Positions 57,934 to 64,000 of a DNA stretch of 64,000 nt are shown piece after piece. Each line of letters opens with the position of its first letter. The stretch's first letter is position 1. A program made the translations under genes and the position numbers. The notes beneath the pieces are model-generated. The model did not search any database, had not been told where the DNA came from, and saw only the letters and a program-made list of their open reading frames with translations. The DNA lies in contig JAOZFN010000012.1 of assembly GCA_027492205.1 (NCBI GenBank), forward strand, positions 1-64,000. The letters are read 5' to 3'. The DNA comes from Thermoproteota archaeon. GTDB lineage: Archaea; Korarchaeota; Korarchaeia; Korarchaeales; Korarchaeaceae.

Positions 57934-59442
57934 ATGGGGGTCAGGGTGGTCGTGGTGGGCGCCGGAGTCGTGGGCGCCAGCGTGGCCAGGGTCCTCAGCA
58001 GGTACGAGGGGCTGGAGGTCCACCTCGTAGACGCCAACCCCGACGTGGGCTGGGGGGTGAGCAAGGCCAACACCGGCATAGTGCACGGCGGCTACGACGA
58101 CGACCCCGATCGCTTCCCGCTCAGGGCGGAGCTCTGCGCGCTCGGGAACGAGATCTGGCACAGGTGGGTCGAGGAGCTCGACGTCCCACACACCTGGAGC
58201 GGGGCGCTCGTGGTCGCCCTTGAGGGAGATCAGAGGAGGGAGCTGGAGTCGCTCCTGGAGAGGGGCAGGAGGAACGGCGTGCCGGAGTTGAGGATAGTCG
58301 AGCGGGAGGAGGCCCTGGCCATGGAGCCCAACCTGACCCAAGAAGTCGAGGCGGCGCTCTGGGCCCCCACGGTTGGGCAGATCCACCCGGTTCGTGCGAC
58401 GGTGGCCATCGTGGAGAACGCCGTGGACAACGGGGTCAGGGTCCACCTGGAGACCGAGGTGAGGGGCGTCAAGGTGGAGGGAGGGGAGGTCAGGGGGCTG
58501 GAGACATCCCGCGGATTCCTGGAGGCCGACGTCGTGGTCAACGCCGCGGGCCTCAGGGCCGACGAGCTCGCGGACATGGCCGGGGTTGAGTTCCCGAGGA
58601 TCAGGCCGAGGAGGGGAGAGTACTGGATATTCGACCGCTCCGCCGGGCCCAAGCCGAGGCGGGTCCTGTTCCCCACACCCACTCCGACCAGCAAGGGGGT
58701 GGTCGTGACGACGGAGGTGAGCGGGCACCTCATGATAGGCCCGAACGCAGAGGACCTCCCTCCGGACGCCAAGGGCGACGTGGGGAACACGGCGAAGGGA
58801 CTGGAGGAGGTATGGGAGAGGGCCGGGGAGCTCTGGCCCAGGCTGCCGCCCAGGAGGCTGGTCATAAGGACCTTCGCAGGGCTGAGGCCTGAGCCGGAGG
58901 GCGGGGACTTCGTGGTTGGTAATACGGAGGTCTGGGGGTTCGTGAACGCCGCGGGAACCAGGTCGCCAGGGCTCACGGCGGCCCCGGCCATCGCCCTGAG
59001 GGTGAGGGACGCGCTTGTCGAGCTCGGGATCGAGCTCAGGGAGAAGGGCGAGTGGAAGGCCACGAGGAGGGACATCGAGTCCACCATCGACCTGGGATGG
59101 CGGGAGAGGGTCGAGAGGGCCAGAGATGACCCGCTCAGGGGCAGGGTGGTCTGCAGGTGCAACCTCGTCACCGAGCGCGAGGTGCTGGAGGCGATCGAGA
59201 GGATGCGGGCGGTGGGCGTGAGGACCCCGAGCATCGACTCGGTGAAGTTCAGGACCGGGGCGACCTCGGGCACCTGCCAGGGGAGCTTCTGCAGGGTCAG
59301 GCTCGTCGAGCTCCTGGCCAGGGAGTTCGGCGTTCCCCCGTGGGGGGTCACGCTGAAGGGGAGGGGGAGCGAGGTGGGCGTCGGTGACGTGAAGGTCCTC
59401 CTCAGGGGGGCGAGCACGGGGGGTGAGGGGAGTGAGGAGTAG
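57934..59442 (+). CDS. FAD-dependent glycerol-3-phosphate dehydrogenase-like oxidoreductase with C-terminal BFD-like [2Fe-2S] domain
   Basis: VVGAGVVG, SKANTGIVHGG, INAAG-type VNAAG, SPGLTAAPAI, VCRC...VKFRT...GTCQGSFC. Confidence 0.85.
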   Translation: MGVRVVVVGAGVVGASVARVLSRYEGLEVHLVDANPDVGWGVSKANTGIVHGGYDDDPDRFPLRAELCALGNEIWHRWVEELDVPHTWSGALVVALEGDQRRELESLLERGRRNGVPELRIVEREEALAMEPNLTQEVEAALWAPTVGQIHPVRATVAIVENAVDNGVRVHLETEVRGVKVEGGEVRGLETSRGFLEADVVVNAAGLRADELADMAGVEFPRIRPRRGEYWIFDRSAGPKPRRVLFPTPTPTSKGVVVTTEVSGHLMIGPNAEDLPPDAKGDVGNTAKGLEEVWERAGELWPRLPPRRLVIRTFAGLRPEPEGGDFVVGNTEVWGFVNAAGTRSPGLTAAPAIALRVRDALVELGIELREKGEWKATRRDIESTIDLGWRERVERARDDPLRGRVVCRCNLVTEREVLEAIERMRAVGVRTPSIDSVKFRTGATSGTCQGSFCRVRLVELLAREFGVPPWGVTLKGRGSEVGVGDVKVLLRGASTGGEGSEE

Positions 59443-60706
59443 GGTCGAGGGGCGCAGGGACGTCGTGGTCGTCGGGGGCGGGCCGGCCGGGATGGCCGCC
59501 GCTGCCAGGGCCGCCGAGATGGGCCTAGACGTGCTGCTGGTGGATGAAGGAAGGAGGCTCGGCGGCATACTGCCGCAGTGCATCCACCCGGGGTTCGGCG
59601 TCCACTACCTGGGAGAGGAGCTCACCGGGCCCGAGTTCGCCCAGAGGCTGGCATCTCGCGTGGAGGACGCCGGCGTAGACTTACTGCTGGATGCGCACGT
59701 GCCGGAGGTCAGGTGGATCTCCCACGCGGAGAAGGGCGTGCGCGTGCTCTCCCCAGGCTTCTCGGGGGAGGTGAGGACCGGGGCGGTGATCTACGCCGCC
59801 GGGGCTAGGGAGAGGCACCGCTTCGAGATCGGGATCCTTGGGGACAGGGTGGCCGGGGTCTACACGGCCGGAGAGGCCCAGACGATGATGGACGTGTACG
59901 GTATCCTGCCGGGAAGGAGGGTGCTCGTCGTCGGCTCCGGCGACGTGGGGATGATCGTGGCAAGGAGGTTCGCCCTGGAGGGGGCCGAGGTGGTTGGAGT
60001 CGTCGAGATAATGCCCTACCCTGGCGGGCTCACGAGGAATGTGGTCCAGTGCCTGGAGGACTTCGACATCCCCCTCCTGCTGAGCCACAGGGTCGTCGCG
60101 GTCAGGGGGAGGGGGAGGGGGAGGGTGGAGAGGGCCGTCCTGGTGAGAGTTGACGAGGGGCTGAGAGACGTTCCCGGGACCGAGACGGAGGTGGAGTGCG
60201 ACACGGTGGTCGTGTCGGCCGGGCTGGTACCAAGGATGGAGGTCCTGCGAGAGCTGGGGGCGCTGATCGATCAAGCGACGGGAGGCCCGATGGTCAACGA
60301 CAGGCTGGAGACCACGGTACCGGGAGTCTTCGCCGCGGGGAACGCCCTCGTGATAAACGATCTGGTGGATCACGCCGCCGAGCAGGGCGAGCAGGCCGCC
60401 GAGGGGGCGGCCGAGTTCCTGAGGAGAGGGGGAATCCCTGCGACCGACTGGGTGAAGCTGAGGCCGGGCGAGGGAGTCAAGCTGACGGTACCTCAACTCC
60501 TCAGCGGGGAGAGGGACGTCTGGGTCTACTTGAGGGTCGCCAGGCCCGTCAGGAACGCGAGACTAAGCCTCAGGGGAGCGGGCAAGGAGGTCAGGCTCCC
60601 GGTGGTCAGGCCGGCGGAAATGGTCAGGGTCAAGCTCATGGCCGGGGAGGTCAGGCGGGCTAAGGTCGGGGGCCGGGAGGTCGTTGCGGAGGTGTACGGA
60701 GGTTGA
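59423..60706 (+). CDS. FAD/NAD(P)-dependent oxidoreductase partner subunit
   Basis: GGGPAG, GGILPQCIH.GFG, LTGPE, GSGDVG, GGLTRNVVQCLED, FAAGN. Confidence 0.88.
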   Translation: MRGVRSRVEGRRDVVVVGGGPAGMAAAARAAEMGLDVLLVDEGRRLGGILPQCIHPGFGVHYLGEELTGPEFAQRLASRVEDAGVDLLLDAHVPEVRWISHAEKGVRVLSPGFSGEVRTGAVIYAAGARERHRFEIGILGDRVAGVYTAGEAQTMMDVYGILPGRRVLVVGSGDVGMIVARRFALEGAEVVGVVEIMPYPGGLTRNVVQCLEDFDIPLLLSHRVVAVRGRGRGRVERAVLVRVDEGLRDVPGTETEVECDTVVVSAGLVPRMEVLRELGALIDQATGGPMVNDRLETTVPGVFAAGNALVINDLVDHAAEQGEQAAEGAAEFLRRGGIPATDWVKLRPGEGVKLTVPQLLSGERDVWVYLRVARPVRNARLSLRGAGKEVRLPVVRPAEMVRVKLMAGEVRRAKVGGREVVAEVYGG

Positions 60707-61116
60707 AGGATCGAAGGGAGGTCAGGAGGCTGACCTGCATCGTCTGCCCCCTGGGCTGCGAGATTGAGGTTCTGCTGGACCGCGGCCCGGGCGGAGATGT
60801 GAGGGTGCTCGAGGTTGAGGGGGCCGCTTGCCCCAGGGGGAGGGAGTGGGCCGCTCGGGAGGTGACAGACCCCAAGAGGGTCGTGATCACCGTGGTGCCG
60901 GTGAGGGGCGGAGACCCGCCGACCGTGAGCGTGAAGACGGACAGGCCGATCCCCAAGTCCAGGATCCCGGAGTTCATGAGGGCCCTGGCCGGGCTGGAGG
61001 TGGAGGCGCCCGTGAGGGTGGGTCAGGTCCTCGCCAGTGGGGTGCTCGACCTGGCGAACGTGGTGGCGACCAGGGAGTCAAGATCGATGGGGAGAAGTCT
61101 CGGAGAGAGGCCGTGA
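60703..61116 (+). CDS. DUF1667-family CxxC protein (third subunit of the G3PDH block)
   Basis: TCIVCPLGC, G.ACPRG..WA..E..DPKR, VSVKT..PIPK, APV..G.V. Confidence 0.85.
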   Translation: MKDRREVRRLTCIVCPLGCEIEVLLDRGPGGDVRVLEVEGAACPRGREWAAREVTDPKRVVITVVPVRGGDPPTVSVKTDRPIPKSRIPEFMRALAGLEVEAPVRVGQVLASGVLDLANVVATRESRSMGRSLGERP

Positions 61117-61300
61117 GGTCCCCTGCGGCCTACCACCTACCCTACCCCACGAACGGGGAACCGGGAGTATGGGGATCACGATTCCCGATATAGGGGAAGT
61201 AGCCCAGGCCGGATGGGCATCCGTGCTCTGGAGGCCCCCTCCCGCCATATCCAGACAAGGGTTCAACGCGTCGGCGGTCTTCGGCGTCTCAGTGAGCACG

Positions 61301-61316
61301 TCAGTACGAACCTGCG
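61301..61316 (+). promoter_or_regulatory. Conserved upstream motif, copy 1 (TCAGTACGAAcCTGCG)
   Basis: 15/16 identical to 61575-61590; begins exactly 70 nt before the ATG of precursor 1. Confidence 0.7.
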
Positions 61317-61370
61317 AGAAACCGTGTTATCAACGGGGGAGGATCCCCGCGCAGGTCCGGGTGGTTGAGC

Positions 61371-61487
61371 ATGGCCGTACTCTCCGCGTTCTTCGGGCTC
61401 GGCGCGGAGGACCTCAGAGCCTCCGTGACCGTCGCATCCTGCTCGGCCTGCTGCCTGGCGGGCGGAGGGGGGACCCTCATCGCCTAG
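61371..61487 (+). CDS. Putative RiPP precursor peptide 1 (38 aa) MAVLSAFFGLGAEDLRASVTVASCSACCLAGGGGTLIA
   Basis: Translated by hand (below the ORF-track cutoff); ATG after GGGTGG; ungapped paralog of precursor 2. Confidence 0.8.
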   Translation: MAVLSAFFGLGAEDLRASVTVASCSACCLAGGGGTLIA

Positions 61488-61503
61488 GCCCCCCACCTGC
61501 CAC

Positions 61504-61529
61504 TTTTTTCTCGATAAATCCGCTTTTTT
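61504..61529 (+). terminator. Oligo-T terminator tracts after precursor 1
   Basis: TTTTTT at 61504-61509 and 61524-61529, starting 17 nt after the stop. Confidence 0.55.
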
Positions 61530-61574
61530 CAGCCAATAGAGTAAGATCCGACTATGTATGGATATGTTATCACC

Positions 61575-61590
61575 TCAGTACGAATCTGCG
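61575..61590 (+). promoter_or_regulatory. Conserved upstream motif, copy 2 (TCAGTACGAAtCTGCG), followed by TATA-like ATTTTTA
   Basis: Begins exactly 70 nt before the ATG of precursor 2. Confidence 0.7.
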
Positions 61591-61644
61591 GATCATGATT
61601 TTTACTTCATACTGGCCGGAGCCTCAGCCCAAGGGGTGAGGTGT

Positions 61645-61764
61645 ATGGCGAGCGTGCTGGGCGAGTGGAGGGATGTGAGCGCCGCCGACATCGGCGACGG
61701 CGTGACGGCCTGGCCTTGCGCCTTCTGCTGCCTCCTGGCGGGAGGGGGCACCCTAATCACCTGA
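61645..61764 (+). CDS. Putative RiPP precursor peptide 2 (39 aa) MASVLGEWRDVSAADIGDGVTAWPCAFCCLLAGGGTLIT
   Basis: Strong SD GGGGTGAGGTG; directly upstream of the rSAM/SPASM gene; CxxCC core shared with precursor 1. Confidence 0.85.
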   Translation: MASVLGEWRDVSAADIGDGVTAWPCAFCCLLAGGGTLIT

Positions 61765-61781
61765 GGGTCCCTCTCTCCTCA

Positions 61782-61787
61782 TTTTTT
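61782..61787 (+). terminator. Oligo-T terminator/attenuator between precursor 2 and the maturase
   Basis: Pyrimidine run then TTTTTT, 18 nt after the stop. Confidence 0.5.
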
Positions 61788-61801
61788 GGGCGTGAACGGG
61801 G

Positions 61802-63210
61802 GTGTTCGGCGTGTCTAGGCCGGTCCTGAAGCCATTCGTCGGGATCAGGAGAGAGGATTTCGGGGTGATCCTCTACAGAGGAGGCTCCGACCAGATTCAG
61901 GCGGTCCACCCAGTCGCCGCGTACGTGCTCACCCTCATGGACGGGAGGAGGACTTTGAGGGAGATCTCAGAGGCCTTGGCGAGGGAGCTCGGCAGGGGCG
62001 TTGGGGACGCCACGGAGATAGTCGAGGTCGTGCTGGACAGGTACGCCGACTACGTCGACCTCGAGGGCTCCCACGTGAAGGACTTGCCGAGCCCGGAGGA
62101 GCTGCTCGAAGGAGTACCTGCTGAGATCCCCCCGGAGGAGGCCCTCCACGGCAGGCTCAGCGCCCCGACGGGCTTCGGCTACATCGTGACCCACGCCTGC
62201 CCCAACAGGTGCAGGTACTGCTACGCCGCCGCCTGGAGGAGGGCGAGGCTCGAGGACGACCTCGTTCCGCTGGACGTCATCCTCAGGACCGTGGACGAGG
62301 CGGCGGATGTCGGGGTCAAGACGATCCTGATGACCGGCGGCGAGCCGTTCATGAGGCCCGACCTGGTGGACATAGCCGAGAGGGCCCTGAAGAGGGACAT
62401 CTTCGTCTACATACCAACCAAGTCGCTGATAACGGAAGAGAAGGCCAGGAGGCTCAGCGAGGCCGGCTTGGGCTGGATCCAGGTGAGCATAGACTCGCCA
62501 AATCCGGAGACCGAGGACTTCCTCGTGGGGCCCGGGGCCCACGCGAGGCTGACGACCACGGTCAGGAACCTGGTCAGGCACGGGATCGACGTGAGGGTCA
62601 ACTCCGTCGTCACCTCGTACAACGTCGGGGAGGTTCCGAGGCTGATCGAGTGGCTCTACGAGATGGGGGTCAGCAGGATCTCCCTCTCACCGTATCAGTC
62701 CCCCCACGACAGGGTCGACGACGACCTCTTCCCCTCGGTGGGGGACTACGCCTGGCTGCTGGACAGGATCAAGGAGCTGCCGAGGCACCTGAGGGACGCG
62801 CTCGACCCGGCCGGAATACGGGCGATAGAGAACGCCGTGAGGGTCAACGAAGACGAGCTGGAGGATGTGGTGGCCCTGAGAAAGTGCTCCGCGGGAAGGA
62901 GTTCCCTCGTCATACTGCCGGACGCAGGGTTTCGTTCTGCGAGAGGGTGGCGCTGGACGAGAGGTTCGTCGTGGGAGACCTGAGGAAGCAGTCTCTCATG
63001 GATATATGGAGGTCGGAGAGGCTGGAGAGGCTGGTGTATCCACCGAGGGAGCTGTTCTCCGGCACGGCGTGCCACGACTGCCCCGTCTTCGACGAGTGCA
63101 CCAGGCTGGGGAAGAGGTGCTACGTGAGGGCCATGGACGCCTACGGGGAGCCCTTCGCCCCGGACCCGATATGCCCGGCCGCGCCGCGGGTGGAGGGCAG
63201 GTTCGTGTGA
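61802..63210 (+). CDS. RRE(PqqD)-radical SAM-SPASM peptide maturase; single-base frameshift at ~62924
   Basis: PqqD-like VAAYVLTLMDGRRTLREI; CPNRCRYC; TGGEP; QVSIDS; SPASM CSAG..LPD[G]RVSFCE..VGDLRKQSLMDIW..CHDC..EC..RC..DPICP split across ORFs 61802..62983 and 62209..63210. Confidence 0.9.
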
Positions 63211-63225
63211 CGGGGGGTGGGTGAG

Positions 63226-64000
63226 GTGGCGTCGGGCGTCGCGCGCGACGCGGTGATCGCCGAGAACCTGGTCAAGTACTACGGAGACTTCAAGGCGCTC
63301 GACGGCGTCTCTCTGAGGGTCGAGAGGGGAGAGGTCGTGGCCCTGCTGGGCCCCAACGGGGCTGGGAAGACCACCACCATCGGCATACTCTGCGGCCTCA
63401 TGTCCGCGGACGCCGGCAGGGCCTTCGTCCTCGGGGTCCCGTCGACCGACAAGGATGGGGTGAGCAGGCTGATCTCCTACGCCCCGCAGGAGACGGCCCT
63501 TGACTACCTGATGAGCGTGGAGGACAACCTGAGGTTCATCGGCTGGCTGAGGGGGCTTAGGGGCGGGCGGCTCAGGGAGCGGATCGAGCGGGCACTGAGA
63601 GAGTTCGGCCTCCTCGAGAAGAGGGGGGTCCCGGTCATAGCCCTCTCGGGTGGGCTGATGAGGAGGGTCCAGCTGGCCGGGGCCCTCATGCTGGAGCGGG
63701 AGGTGCTGGTGCTGGACGAGCCCACCCTCGGGCTTGACCCCATGGGCAAGATGACGGTCTGGCAGATGGTCAGGGAGAGGGCCAGGAGGGGGGCGGCCGT
63801 GCTGGTCGCCACCAACGACATGCACGAGGCCGAGGTGCTCGCGGACAGGATAGCCTTCCTAAACAGGGGCAGGATCGTCGCCTTCGACACGGCCGACAGG
63901 CTCAAGGCCCTGTCCGGTAGCTCCTACCTGAGGCTGCGGCTGGAGCCCGGCTGGGAAGACCTGGTCAGTCCGCCCCGGGGGTCGAGGGTCCTCGGGGACG
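63226..64000 (+). CDS. ABC transporter ATP-binding protein (DrrA/export type), 3' truncated by window
   Basis: Read by hand: ENLVKYYGDFKALDG, GPNGAGKTT, APQE, LSGG, LDEPTLGLDP; no stop before the window end. Confidence 0.9.
   Translation, partial: MASGVARDAVIAENLVKYYGDFKALDGVSLRVERGEVVALLGPNGAGKTTTIGILCGLMSADAGRAFVLGVPSTDKDGVSRLISYAPQETALDYLMSVEDNLRFIGWLRGLRGGRLRERIERALREFGLLEKRGVPVIALSGGLMRRVQLAGALMLEREVLVLDEPTLGLDPMGKMTVWQMVRERARRGAAVLVATNDMHEAEVLADRIAFLNRGRIVAFDTADRLKALSGSSYLRLRLEPGWEDLVSPPRGSRVLGD

Follow-up and report, generated by a model that had tools for sequence, protein, structure and literature searches.

Does the end of this korarchaeal contig encode peptides that are matured by a radical S-adenosylmethionine (SAM) enzyme, and if so, which bond does the enzyme make? 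The window analysed here is a stretch of 64,000 nucleotides (positions 1 to 64,000 of the forward strand) of contig JAOZFN010000012.1, hereafter C1, of assembly GCA_027492205.1 (G000; 1.94 Mb, 17 contigs, 63% GC; Korarchaeaceae). At its right end lie two short genes for cysteine-containing peptides, preA and preB, then a gene for a radical SAM (rSAM) enzyme with a SPASM domain, called the maturase below, and the start of an ABC transporter ATPase gene. An earlier note, made from the letters alone, had taken this layout of precursors, an enzyme joining a RiPP recognition element (RRE) to rSAM and SPASM domains, and ABC export genes for a system making a peptide that is synthesized on ribosomes and then modified post-translationally (RiPP), and the layout was recovered, its RRE as a probable one. 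We read the locus as an rSAM-SPASM cassette for a Cys-crosslinked, sactipeptide- or ranthipeptide-like RiPP, a reading to which, chemistry included, we give a probability of about 0.55. That a real RiPP cassette exists in this lineage is highly probable; that such a cassette would form thioethers at cysteine is favoured with less assurance.

The comparison drew on genus g1 (G000 and four further genomes, G001 to G004), on genus g2 (G005, G009 and G012, with loci L014 and L032), on one metagenome contig (L111; 3254 bp, 67% GC), on a sample of 43 genomes of the phylum and on seven related loci with flanks (L029 and L031-L036), in which the maturase is 25-37% identical. G001 matches G000 at 95.3% DNA identity across 28.6 kb. 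The features of the cassette and its surroundings are listed in Table 1.

Table 1. Features in and just beyond the window; C1 coordinates lie on the contig of G000 that holds the window
Feature	Position	Strand	Remarks
Conserved upstream element A	61297..61337	+	core TCAGTACGAACCTGCG at 61301-61316, then TATA-like GTTATCA; candidate preA operator and promoter
preA	61371..61487	+	38-aa precursor MAVLSAFFGLGAEDLRASVTVASCSACCLAGGGGTLIA; orthologs in G001, L111 and G002
Two T6 runs after preA	61504-61509, 61524-61529	+	38% GC spacer; archaeal-type terminator signal
Conserved upstream element B	61560..61605	+	GTTATCA, core TCAGTACGAATCTGCG at 61575-61590, TATA-like ATTTTTAC; candidate preB operator and promoter
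preB	61645..61764	+	39-aa precursor MASVLGEWRDVSAADIGDGVTAWPCAFCCLLAGGGTLIT; Shine-Dalgarno-like GAGGTG 3 nt upstream
T6 run after preB, ahead of maturase start	61782..61787	+	kept in G001 and L111
Maturase, probable RRE (PqqD-like) + radical SAM + SPASM	61802..63210	+	likely start GTG 61811; frame broken
DrrA-like ABC transporter ATPase	63217..64000, on to C1:64209	+	PF00005 99.7 bits; TIGR01188 219 bits
ABC-2 permease	C1:64214-64960		just past the window; PF01061 35.2 bits vs 26.9
350-aa protein	C1:65001-66053		downstream of the permease; no Pfam match
EarA-like winged-helix regulator	C1:66031-66375		PF07381 79.2 bits; cut-off 22
DUF4097 'toastrack' protein	C1:66372-67778		PF13349 28.6 bits

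Two paralogous peptides and a broken maturase gene

The two short open reading frames (ORFs) proposed by the earlier note were confirmed in position and sequence. An alternative TTG start of preA at 61365 is not kept in L111, and the extension of a longer preB frame from ATG 61558 is kept neither in L111 nor in G002. The peptides had been described as gapless paralogs with 12 identities in the last 20 residues, which is upheld, and BLASTP aligns them without gaps at 16 of 36 identical positions (E=1e-8 for this single comparison). Both peptides and their relatives share the core CxxCCLxxGGGTLI, followed by A or T. A six-frame regular expression for CxxCC...GGG finds only two copies in the 1.94-Mb genome, preA and preB. 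The core W and F occur in preB only, so that, as had been remarked from the sequence, the paralogs share no conserved core aromatic.

The core hardly changes among relatives. In G001, preA carries one amino acid change and preB is identical, and the L111 preA differs from the window peptide at seven positions, all outside the 15-aa core. The preB leader has four changes in L111 and in the database protein P0154. G002 encodes a third preA variant, MAQLGEYAGLSTEDIRVSTSAAICATCCLVAGGGTLIA, which retains CxxCCL and GGGTLIA; the first codons of its preB stand at a contig end. Compared with G000, the core codons of preA show no synonymous change in G001 and three in L111 and those of preB two and four, the L111 preB core remaining identical in protein, which sums to nine synonymous and no non-synonymous changes. 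The leaders of the same genes show 12 non-synonymous and five synonymous changes. Cores with synonymous changes only indicate translation, with the last 15-20 residues held under strong purifying selection, and from this codon comparison we conclude that preA and preB are real coding genes under selection.

The peptides match no described family, as the earlier note had suspected: against Pfam and NCBIfam they hit no family at E<=1, and among 5.8 billion called proteins a single cluster matches preB, namely P0154, which is identical to the preB of L111. A degenerate DNA pattern run over a metagenome collection returned 12 stretches, of which L111 is real (both peptides in tandem, then an unbroken maturase gene and the beginning of the ABC ATPase gene) and the other 11 are unrelated long ORFs. 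As in the window, the CxxCCLxxGGGTLI peptides occur together with the maturase in G001, G002 and L111. In the phylum sample, a profile of the precursors gave strong matches in G000, G001 and G002 only, with all others at E>=0.018.

In the enzyme, Radical_SAM (PF04055; cut-off 29.5) scores 99.7 bits, with the motif CPNRCRYC, and the three cysteines of its CxxxCxxC (C133, C137 and C140) are invariant in seven sequences. SPASM (PF13186) scores 32.6 bits on the C-terminal piece in the window and 49.3 on the intact G001 ortholog. Seven C-terminal cysteines are invariant (C362, C380, C424, C427, C433, C440 and C458 in G001 numbering) and agree with a SPASM domain that carries two auxiliary clusters. 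PqqD (PF05402) reaches 22.7-22.8 bits, just below its gathering score of 23.4, and is among the precomputed domains of the ortholog P0001. In an AlphaFold2 model of the G001 maturase (mean pLDDT 72), the N-terminal domain has strands at 13-18, 21-26 and 32-35 and helices at 37-44, 52-63 and 67-80 (pLDDT ~60-88), ahead of the rSAM barrel; three strands and three helices are what we take to be the RRE/PqqD topology. Of the domain order given in the earlier note, the CxxxCxxC rSAM core and the seven-Cys SPASM domain stand, and the RRE-like domain ahead of them is probable.

Could the small ORFs be something other than substrates of this enzyme, either untranslated or independent Cys peptides with a metal-binding, membrane or regulatory role, while the enzyme acts elsewhere? 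Short leaders without the motif usual in the maturase family speak for this, as does the likeness of the preA VASC to a lipobox. However, the cores show translation-level selection in their synonymous-only changes, the order peptide-peptide-maturase is kept in all three loci with enough flank, a short ORF with C-terminal cysteines is adjacent to the maturase at each of the seven related loci, and an RRE domain implies a peptide substrate. There is no lipobox in preB and both leaders carry acidic residues in their middle, so neither resembles a signal peptide; a lipoprotein signal was ruled out on these grounds. We consider this explanation very improbable.

The earlier note had also spoken of a maturase in need of repair, and the gene does lie in two frames. 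The first (61802-62983) runs for 19 codons past ...VILPD before it is stopped, and the remainder of the SPASM domain is read in the frame ending at 63210; the cause is an uncompensated 1-nt deletion at 62923/62924, and the break falls between the first and second of the seven SPASM cysteines. A real deletion would put the other six out of frame and leave the enzyme inactive. G001 (96% identity), L111 and P0001 have unbroken orthologs of 466-469 aa, and that of G002 (87%) is cut by a contig end; the intact orthologs read ...VILPDGRVSFCERV... over the break. The extra G behind 62923 is present in G001 and in all three public DNA runs that cover the site (X2-X4). Four such runs were used, X1 not covering the site, all from one study and with small shares of matching sequence (0.06-0.07), and they contain relatives mostly 90-95% alike, not the source strain; no RNA run was among those listed.

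The cassette of this genome may be a decaying remnant, with a real deletion, no auxiliary clusters, and peptides that are unmodified or unmade, a state compatible with either chemistry discussed below. The uncompensated loss of six of seven SPASM cysteines from the frame and the extra G in G001 and the three covering runs speak for it, as does the absence of the cassette from one genome of the genus. A maturase ortholog was found at E<=1e-40 in seven of the 43 genomes: in g1, G000, G001, G002 and, as a fragment, G004; in g2, G005, G009 and G012 (34-35% identity). G003, a g1 genome that is 97% complete, has neither maturase nor peptides, and the cassette is therefore dispensable in the genus. 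On the other hand, apart from the deletion the cassette is undamaged, at 95% identity to G001 across 28.6 kb, neither peptide core has changed, errors of assembly or consensus commonly drop a single G, and the runs came from relatives. No slippery heptamer for -1 shifting was seen at the site, which, together with the additional G of the relatives, also ruled out a programmed -1 frameshift. Elsewhere, 1-nt indels between G000 and G001 are mostly intergenic or in nearby compensating pairs, and the one in the maturase is isolated. Further isolated 1-nt indels do occur in the 28.6-kb alignment (window 47266, 55096, 59405 and others), and are relevant to the question of an assembly artefact behind the maturase frameshift. 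A remnant in this particular genome is, on balance, possible but somewhat improbable.

Proposed cysteine chemistry and its alternatives

Similarity of the enzyme does not indicate which bond is made. Foldseek returns as top PDB matches of the maturase model SuiB, first of all, then PqqE, CteB, BlsE and SkfB, CteB standing at rank 6 (E 9.7e-16). A profile search of the PDB gives the order PqqE (116.7 bits, full length), BlsE, MoaA, SkfB (76 bits), SuiB and CteB (45.6 bits). Among NCBIfam models, the intact ortholog scores 103.1 bits with MftC (TIGR03962; cut-off 265), 94.8 with PqqE (TIGR02109; cut-off 381) and the maturase 86-94 with StsB (NF045574; cut-off 625). NCBIfam includes SCIFF and ranthipeptide models; no SCIFF-maturase model is among the 17 families that the intact enzyme matches at E<=1e-20. 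Since the distance to PqqE, BlsE, MftC, StsB, SkfB, SuiB and CteB is about equal, enzyme similarity cannot tell the chemistry; the predicted architecture is that of a peptide maturase, with the bond type left aside.

All seven related loci have, on the strand of the maturase and no more than 300 nt from it, a short ORF with two to six cysteines in its last 25 residues. Counting small ORFs with at least two cysteines in that stretch, we found 9 of 19 among the adjacent ones and 40 of 263 elsewhere; the four ORFs with at least five are all maturase-adjacent. The adjacent ORFs had first been chosen by eye from the full ORF lists and were counted later. Cys-bearing adjacent ORFs across the family point to cysteine chemistry. 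The earlier note had asked whether homologous maturases stand beside similar peptides: Cys-bearing short ORFs are there, and they have no profile similarity to the window precursors (hhalign probability 0.6%). The related precursors share a leader motif of about L-x-x-[LI]-[KR]-x-x-h-x-x-x-G-[LI], which the leaders of preA and preB lack. With no common leader motif and no relation by hhalign, the window precursors form a separate family found in one genus only.

The maturase family is large, mostly not archaeal and without a curated NCBIfam model. The maturase profile matched 1999 proteins at E<=1e-30 among 1.84 billion representatives, and at least 150 clusters at 50% identity score above 280 bits, mostly over their full length; none of nine members scanned reached an NCBIfam cut-off. 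The closest loci with flanks, among the matches listed, carry the titles of bacterial and archaeal metagenome-assembled genomes: Dehalococcoidales, Desulfobaccales, Bacteroidales, Methanotrichaceae, 'uncultured bacterium' and 'Nitrososphaerota', the last with the gene arrangement of genus g2. The family is undercounted both by the locus scan of species-genome contigs (best 80 of 301 confirmed stretches) and by the word-based protein search (8000 candidates scored).

The case for cysteine chemistry is contextual and built on three observations, that the three core cysteines are invariant, that the adjacent peptide at every related locus has cysteine, and that the SPASM domain has seven cysteines. 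Seven-Cys SPASM domains have been read as leaving an open iron at the first auxiliary cluster (AuxI) for a substrate cysteine, a point that the accessible part of PMC13692751 discusses for CteB and CrpC. The invariant positions are compatible with the hairpin suggested in the earlier note, nested, in which the cysteines of CxxCC would reach over the glycines to T, L and I as acceptors.

The same cassette could also carry out other chemistry: cross-linking of the C-C or C-O type, epimerisation, or oxidative processing at the C-terminal GGGTLI[A/T] as by MftC or PqqE, with the cysteines acting as Fe-S or metal ligands or forming disulfides. The best NCBIfam score is indeed that of the mycofactocin maturase (103 bits), PqqE is the best PDB profile and SuiB the top structural match, and GGGTLI at the C-terminus is the most invariant block of the peptides. 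Those scores, however, are far under the family cut-offs. MftA is marked by a Val-Tyr and PqqA by a Glu...Tyr feature, and the window peptides have neither; no aromatic is conserved between the paralogs, and cysteine recurs in the C-terminal part of the adjacent peptide at every related maturase locus examined. For these reasons we regard non-thioether chemistry as unlikely.

Under the thioether reading, the pathway would run as follows. preA and preB would each have a promoter of their own and give a short transcript that stops at oligo-T. The maturase would bind the precursors through its N-terminal RRE/PqqD-like domain, and its rSAM core with two SPASM auxiliary Fe-S clusters would modify the invariant C-terminal core CxxCCLxxGGGTLI[A/T]. 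The rSAM cluster would yield a 5'-deoxyadenosyl radical, a hydrogen would be abstracted from an acceptor carbon, and a cysteine thiolate, possibly bound to the open AuxI iron, would form the thioether, the most likely product being a peptide with Cys-sulfur-to-carbon cross-links (sactionine or ranthionine). The DrrA-type ATPase and the ABC-2 permease would export the product or protect the producer, and the co-conserved EarA-like regulator would probably drive both precursor promoters through their shared box. We infer each of four elements of this scheme: the pairing of substrate and enzyme, the thioether chemistry, the export and the regulation. A prediction of the maturase-precursor complex scored 0.31 against a mark of 0.32 (runs 0.37, 0.24 and 0.31; controls 0.00-0.01) and was not used as evidence.

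Several observations weigh against this scheme. The maturase passes no curated NCBIfam cut-off and lies about as far from enzymes forming C-C bonds (PqqE, SuiB, MftC) as from those forming thioethers (StsB, SkfB, CteB), and its PqqD-like domain stays just below the gathering score. The precursors depart from those of the related maturases in leader and in profile. One genome of the genus, G003, lacks the cassette, and the maturase frame of this assembly is broken, as described above. The ABC genes do not belong to the module at the genus g2 loci. Finally, a domain scan of the neighbouring genes detected no leader peptidase in the cluster, and the ABC-2 pump has no peptidase domain.

Candidate promoter boxes, ABC genes and neighbours

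A block of 40-45 nt, 55-75 nt upstream of each precursor start, is nearly invariant in G001, L111 and G002, whereas the sequence neighbouring it (for example from element A to the preA ATG) diverges among these relatives. With at most one mismatch allowed, its 16-nt core, TCAGTACGAAyCTGCG, has just two places in the genome, 61301 and 61575; the 15 other matches have three mismatches each. The box lies 7-12 nt upstream of the TATA-like elements GTTATCA and ATTTTTAC. A search of Rfam with 61000-61900 gave only a sub-threshold chance match (Twister-sister, 19 bits vs 34, E 0.33), so that the conserved boxes do not represent a known RNA. Oligo-T is an archaeal transcription termination signal; this strand of the 1.94-Mb genome carries 91 runs of T6 or longer, a rate of 0.047 per kb, and three of them fall within 300 nt here.

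An EarA-like winged-helix regulator is encoded beside the maturase in G000, G001 and the g2 locus L032, where PF07381 scores 84.5 bits; the flank of L014 ends before the position of the regulator. In Methanococcus, EarA acts as an activator by binding to repeats just upstream of the BRE/TATA, according to the accessible part of PMC5512572. By analogy, the EarA-like regulator probably controls the two precursor promoters via the shared box, a pairing of regulator and box that comes from their co-occurrence and the placement of the box. A similar AGAGTACnnnnCTGA-type element stands ahead of ATATAAT at the g2 loci. Upstream of the single g2 precursor we also observed an imperfect palindrome, TTCAAGAGTAC[G/T]CTA[C/T]TGAATATAAT (L032 2735-2760, L014 ~1230-1255); it has AGTAC...CTG in common with the window box and may be the same type of operator.

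The ATPase gene follows directly on the maturase stop at all four genus-g1 loci (G000, G001, G002 and L111). Its match to the DrrA model TIGR01188 is under the cut-off of 312 bits; with its ABC_tran domain it agrees with the export-type ATPase that the earlier note had called, and it is followed by an ABC2_membrane permease, which completes the pair. The note had suggested inspecting the next window for a permease, a protease or an immunity gene: of these the permease is present and the leader peptidase was not found in the cluster. The order preA-preB-maturase-ABC is the same in G000, G001 and L111; in G002 these pieces are divided between two cut contigs.

Precursors, maturase, a 350-365-aa protein and the EarA-like regulator make up the module that g1 and g2 have in common. 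Homologs of the 350-aa protein stand beside the maturase in G000, G001, L032 and L014, with 32-33% identity between the genera; in g2, this protein and the regulator are divergently transcribed just upstream of the precursor. Its AlphaFold2 model (mean pLDDT 49.9) has a confident N-terminal winged helix-turn-helix (HTH) and an all-helical remainder of low confidence, and hits in the ESM Atlas score at most 0.85, with HTH proteins leading. It is conceivable, though improbable, that the whole is a self-regulated two-peptide signalling or antagonism system in which one maturase makes two minimal thioether-bridged peptides, the ABC pair exports them and feedback passes through the EarA-like activator (with the 350-aa protein) to the operator boxes. 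If true, this would be a peptide quorum-sensing or bacteriocin circuit in a TACK-group archaeon, with a class of precursors whose leaders are recognised otherwise than in the rest of the maturase family.

The left neighbour of the cassette differs in L111, where it is a DUF4097-type protein, and similarity to G000 begins at the block of element A, which we therefore take as the left edge of the cassette. No useful DNA match was obtained for left-flank synteny in G002, G003 or G004. In G000 and G001 the DUF4097 gene follows downstream of the cassette, and in L111 (reverse complement, 95-775) it is directly upstream of preA, and so stays close to it despite the changed order. About 4 kb downstream, at C1:68344-69135, a PEMT/ICMT-type membrane methyltransferase is encoded (PF04191 29.5 bits), for which no link to the peptides was found; CaaX-type prenylation, to which this gene had drawn attention, was ruled out as neither peptide has a C-terminal CaaX. 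Immediately upstream of the cassette, at window 57934-61116, there is an unrelated set of three genes with DAO plus a BFD-like 2Fe-2S domain (251.7 bits), Pyr_redox_2 and DUF1667, which resembles an anaerobic glycerol-3-phosphate-dehydrogenase-type operon. A large CRISPR-like array lies beyond the window, ~7.5 kb downstream at C1:71541-77790, with a ~37-nt repeat (CTTTCAATCTCTGCCCTTGGAGGGCTCTGATTGCTTC) of which a 24-mer recurs 78 times at a spacing of 75-88 nt; these repeats explain the recurrent 'FNLCPWRALIAS / FQSLPLEGSDCF' pseudo-ORFs.

Relation to known systems

The earlier note had held that characterised rSAM RiPPs from hyperthermophilic archaea are rare at best. That was overstated, since archaeal rSAM RiPP clusters called as ranthi- or sactipeptides are already widely predicted (accessible parts of PMC12144867 and PMC13635244) and an archaeal enzyme, CrpC, has been characterised (PMC13692751); what stands is that the precursor family itself is unmatched. 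As far as the accessible parts of PMC12144867 and PMC13692751 go, no rSAM-modified peptide has been isolated from an archaeon, and the former names lanthipeptides from Haloarchaea as the only validated archaeal RiPPs. A literature search on Korarchaeia and RiPPs found no korarchaeal RiPP among the papers listed, the supplementary tables of biosynthetic gene clusters of these two papers being places where related clusters might be listed. The cassette thus offers a compact test case, with two 38-39-aa substrates and one enzyme, in a lineage of which hardly any member has been cultured. For expression, nature provides orthologs of the maturase that are intact, and the cassette gives entry to a large maturase family without a curated model. 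The paired boxes and the EarA-like regulator are in addition a testable example of pathway-specific transcription control in Korarchaeia.

The enzymes PqqE and MftC are closest by sequence score in the rSAM-SPASM part, and with their substrates PqqA and MftA they share with the window a small precursor with a conserved C-terminus and, probably, a PqqD-like RRE. They differ in that their cut-offs are missed by far, that the window has two paralogous peptides with cysteine in place of Tyr/Glu and ABC export genes, and that no other cofactor-pathway gene is found near the cassette.

Sactipeptide systems (subtilosin A/AlbA, thuricin CD TrnA/B with TrnC/D, thurincin H, SkfA/SkfB and the StsB family) resemble the cassette in having Cys donors N-terminal to a turn and possible acceptors after it, in the ABC-type export or immunity pair, and in the StsB score and the structural and sequence matches to SkfB. 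Thuricin CD is a two-peptide system, which the two window paralogs recall. Here, however, one maturase would serve both peptides, the host is an archaeon, and the enzyme, missing the StsB cut-off, is not a member of the sactisynthase family. Known sactipeptide cores are also far longer than the window core of 15-20 aa.

With ranthipeptides and SCIFF peptides of the CteB type (thermocellin, freyrasin/PapB, NxxC), the likeness is a short precursor with C-terminal cysteines, encoded next to an enzyme with an rSAM core, a seven-Cys SPASM domain and, probably in the window, an RRE, and the precursors of related maturases at L031, L033 and L035 are SCIFF-like, with five to six cysteines in their last 25 residues. 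In contrast, CteB is a low match in the PDB profile search (45.6 bits only), neither the window precursors nor the maturase reach an NCBIfam model of this class, and the window core has three cysteines (CxxCC) followed by a Gly run and TLI. It also has no Asp/Asn/Gln acceptor in the C-x-x-x-D or C-x-x-Q/D pattern given in the accessible part of PMC13692751.

The nearest archaeal precedent is CrpC of Methanococcus voltae, a SPASM thioether enzyme characterised in 2026 that acts on a protein, CrpA, and for which ranthionine cross-links were shown experimentally (PMC13692751, accessible part, as for all statements on CrpC here). Both are archaeal enzymes with an rSAM core, a seven-Cys SPASM domain and, probably in the window, an RRE, and both have Cys-rich substrates, putative ones in the window, with paralogous partners that have a common N-terminal region. 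CrpA, however, is a 28.8-kDa protein with ten 17-residue repeats, unlike the 38-39-aa window peptides, and CrpC is assigned to TIGR04463, a family that is absent from those listed for the window maturase (the best 25 of 83) and from all 17 that the intact ortholog matches at E<=1e-20.

Taken together, these comparisons suggest that the cassette works like a sacti- or ranthipeptide system while belonging to no curated maturase or precursor family among those compared. What is unusual in it is the very small invariant core of precursors confined to one genus, their leaders without the family motif, and the pairing of operator boxes with an EarA-like regulator.

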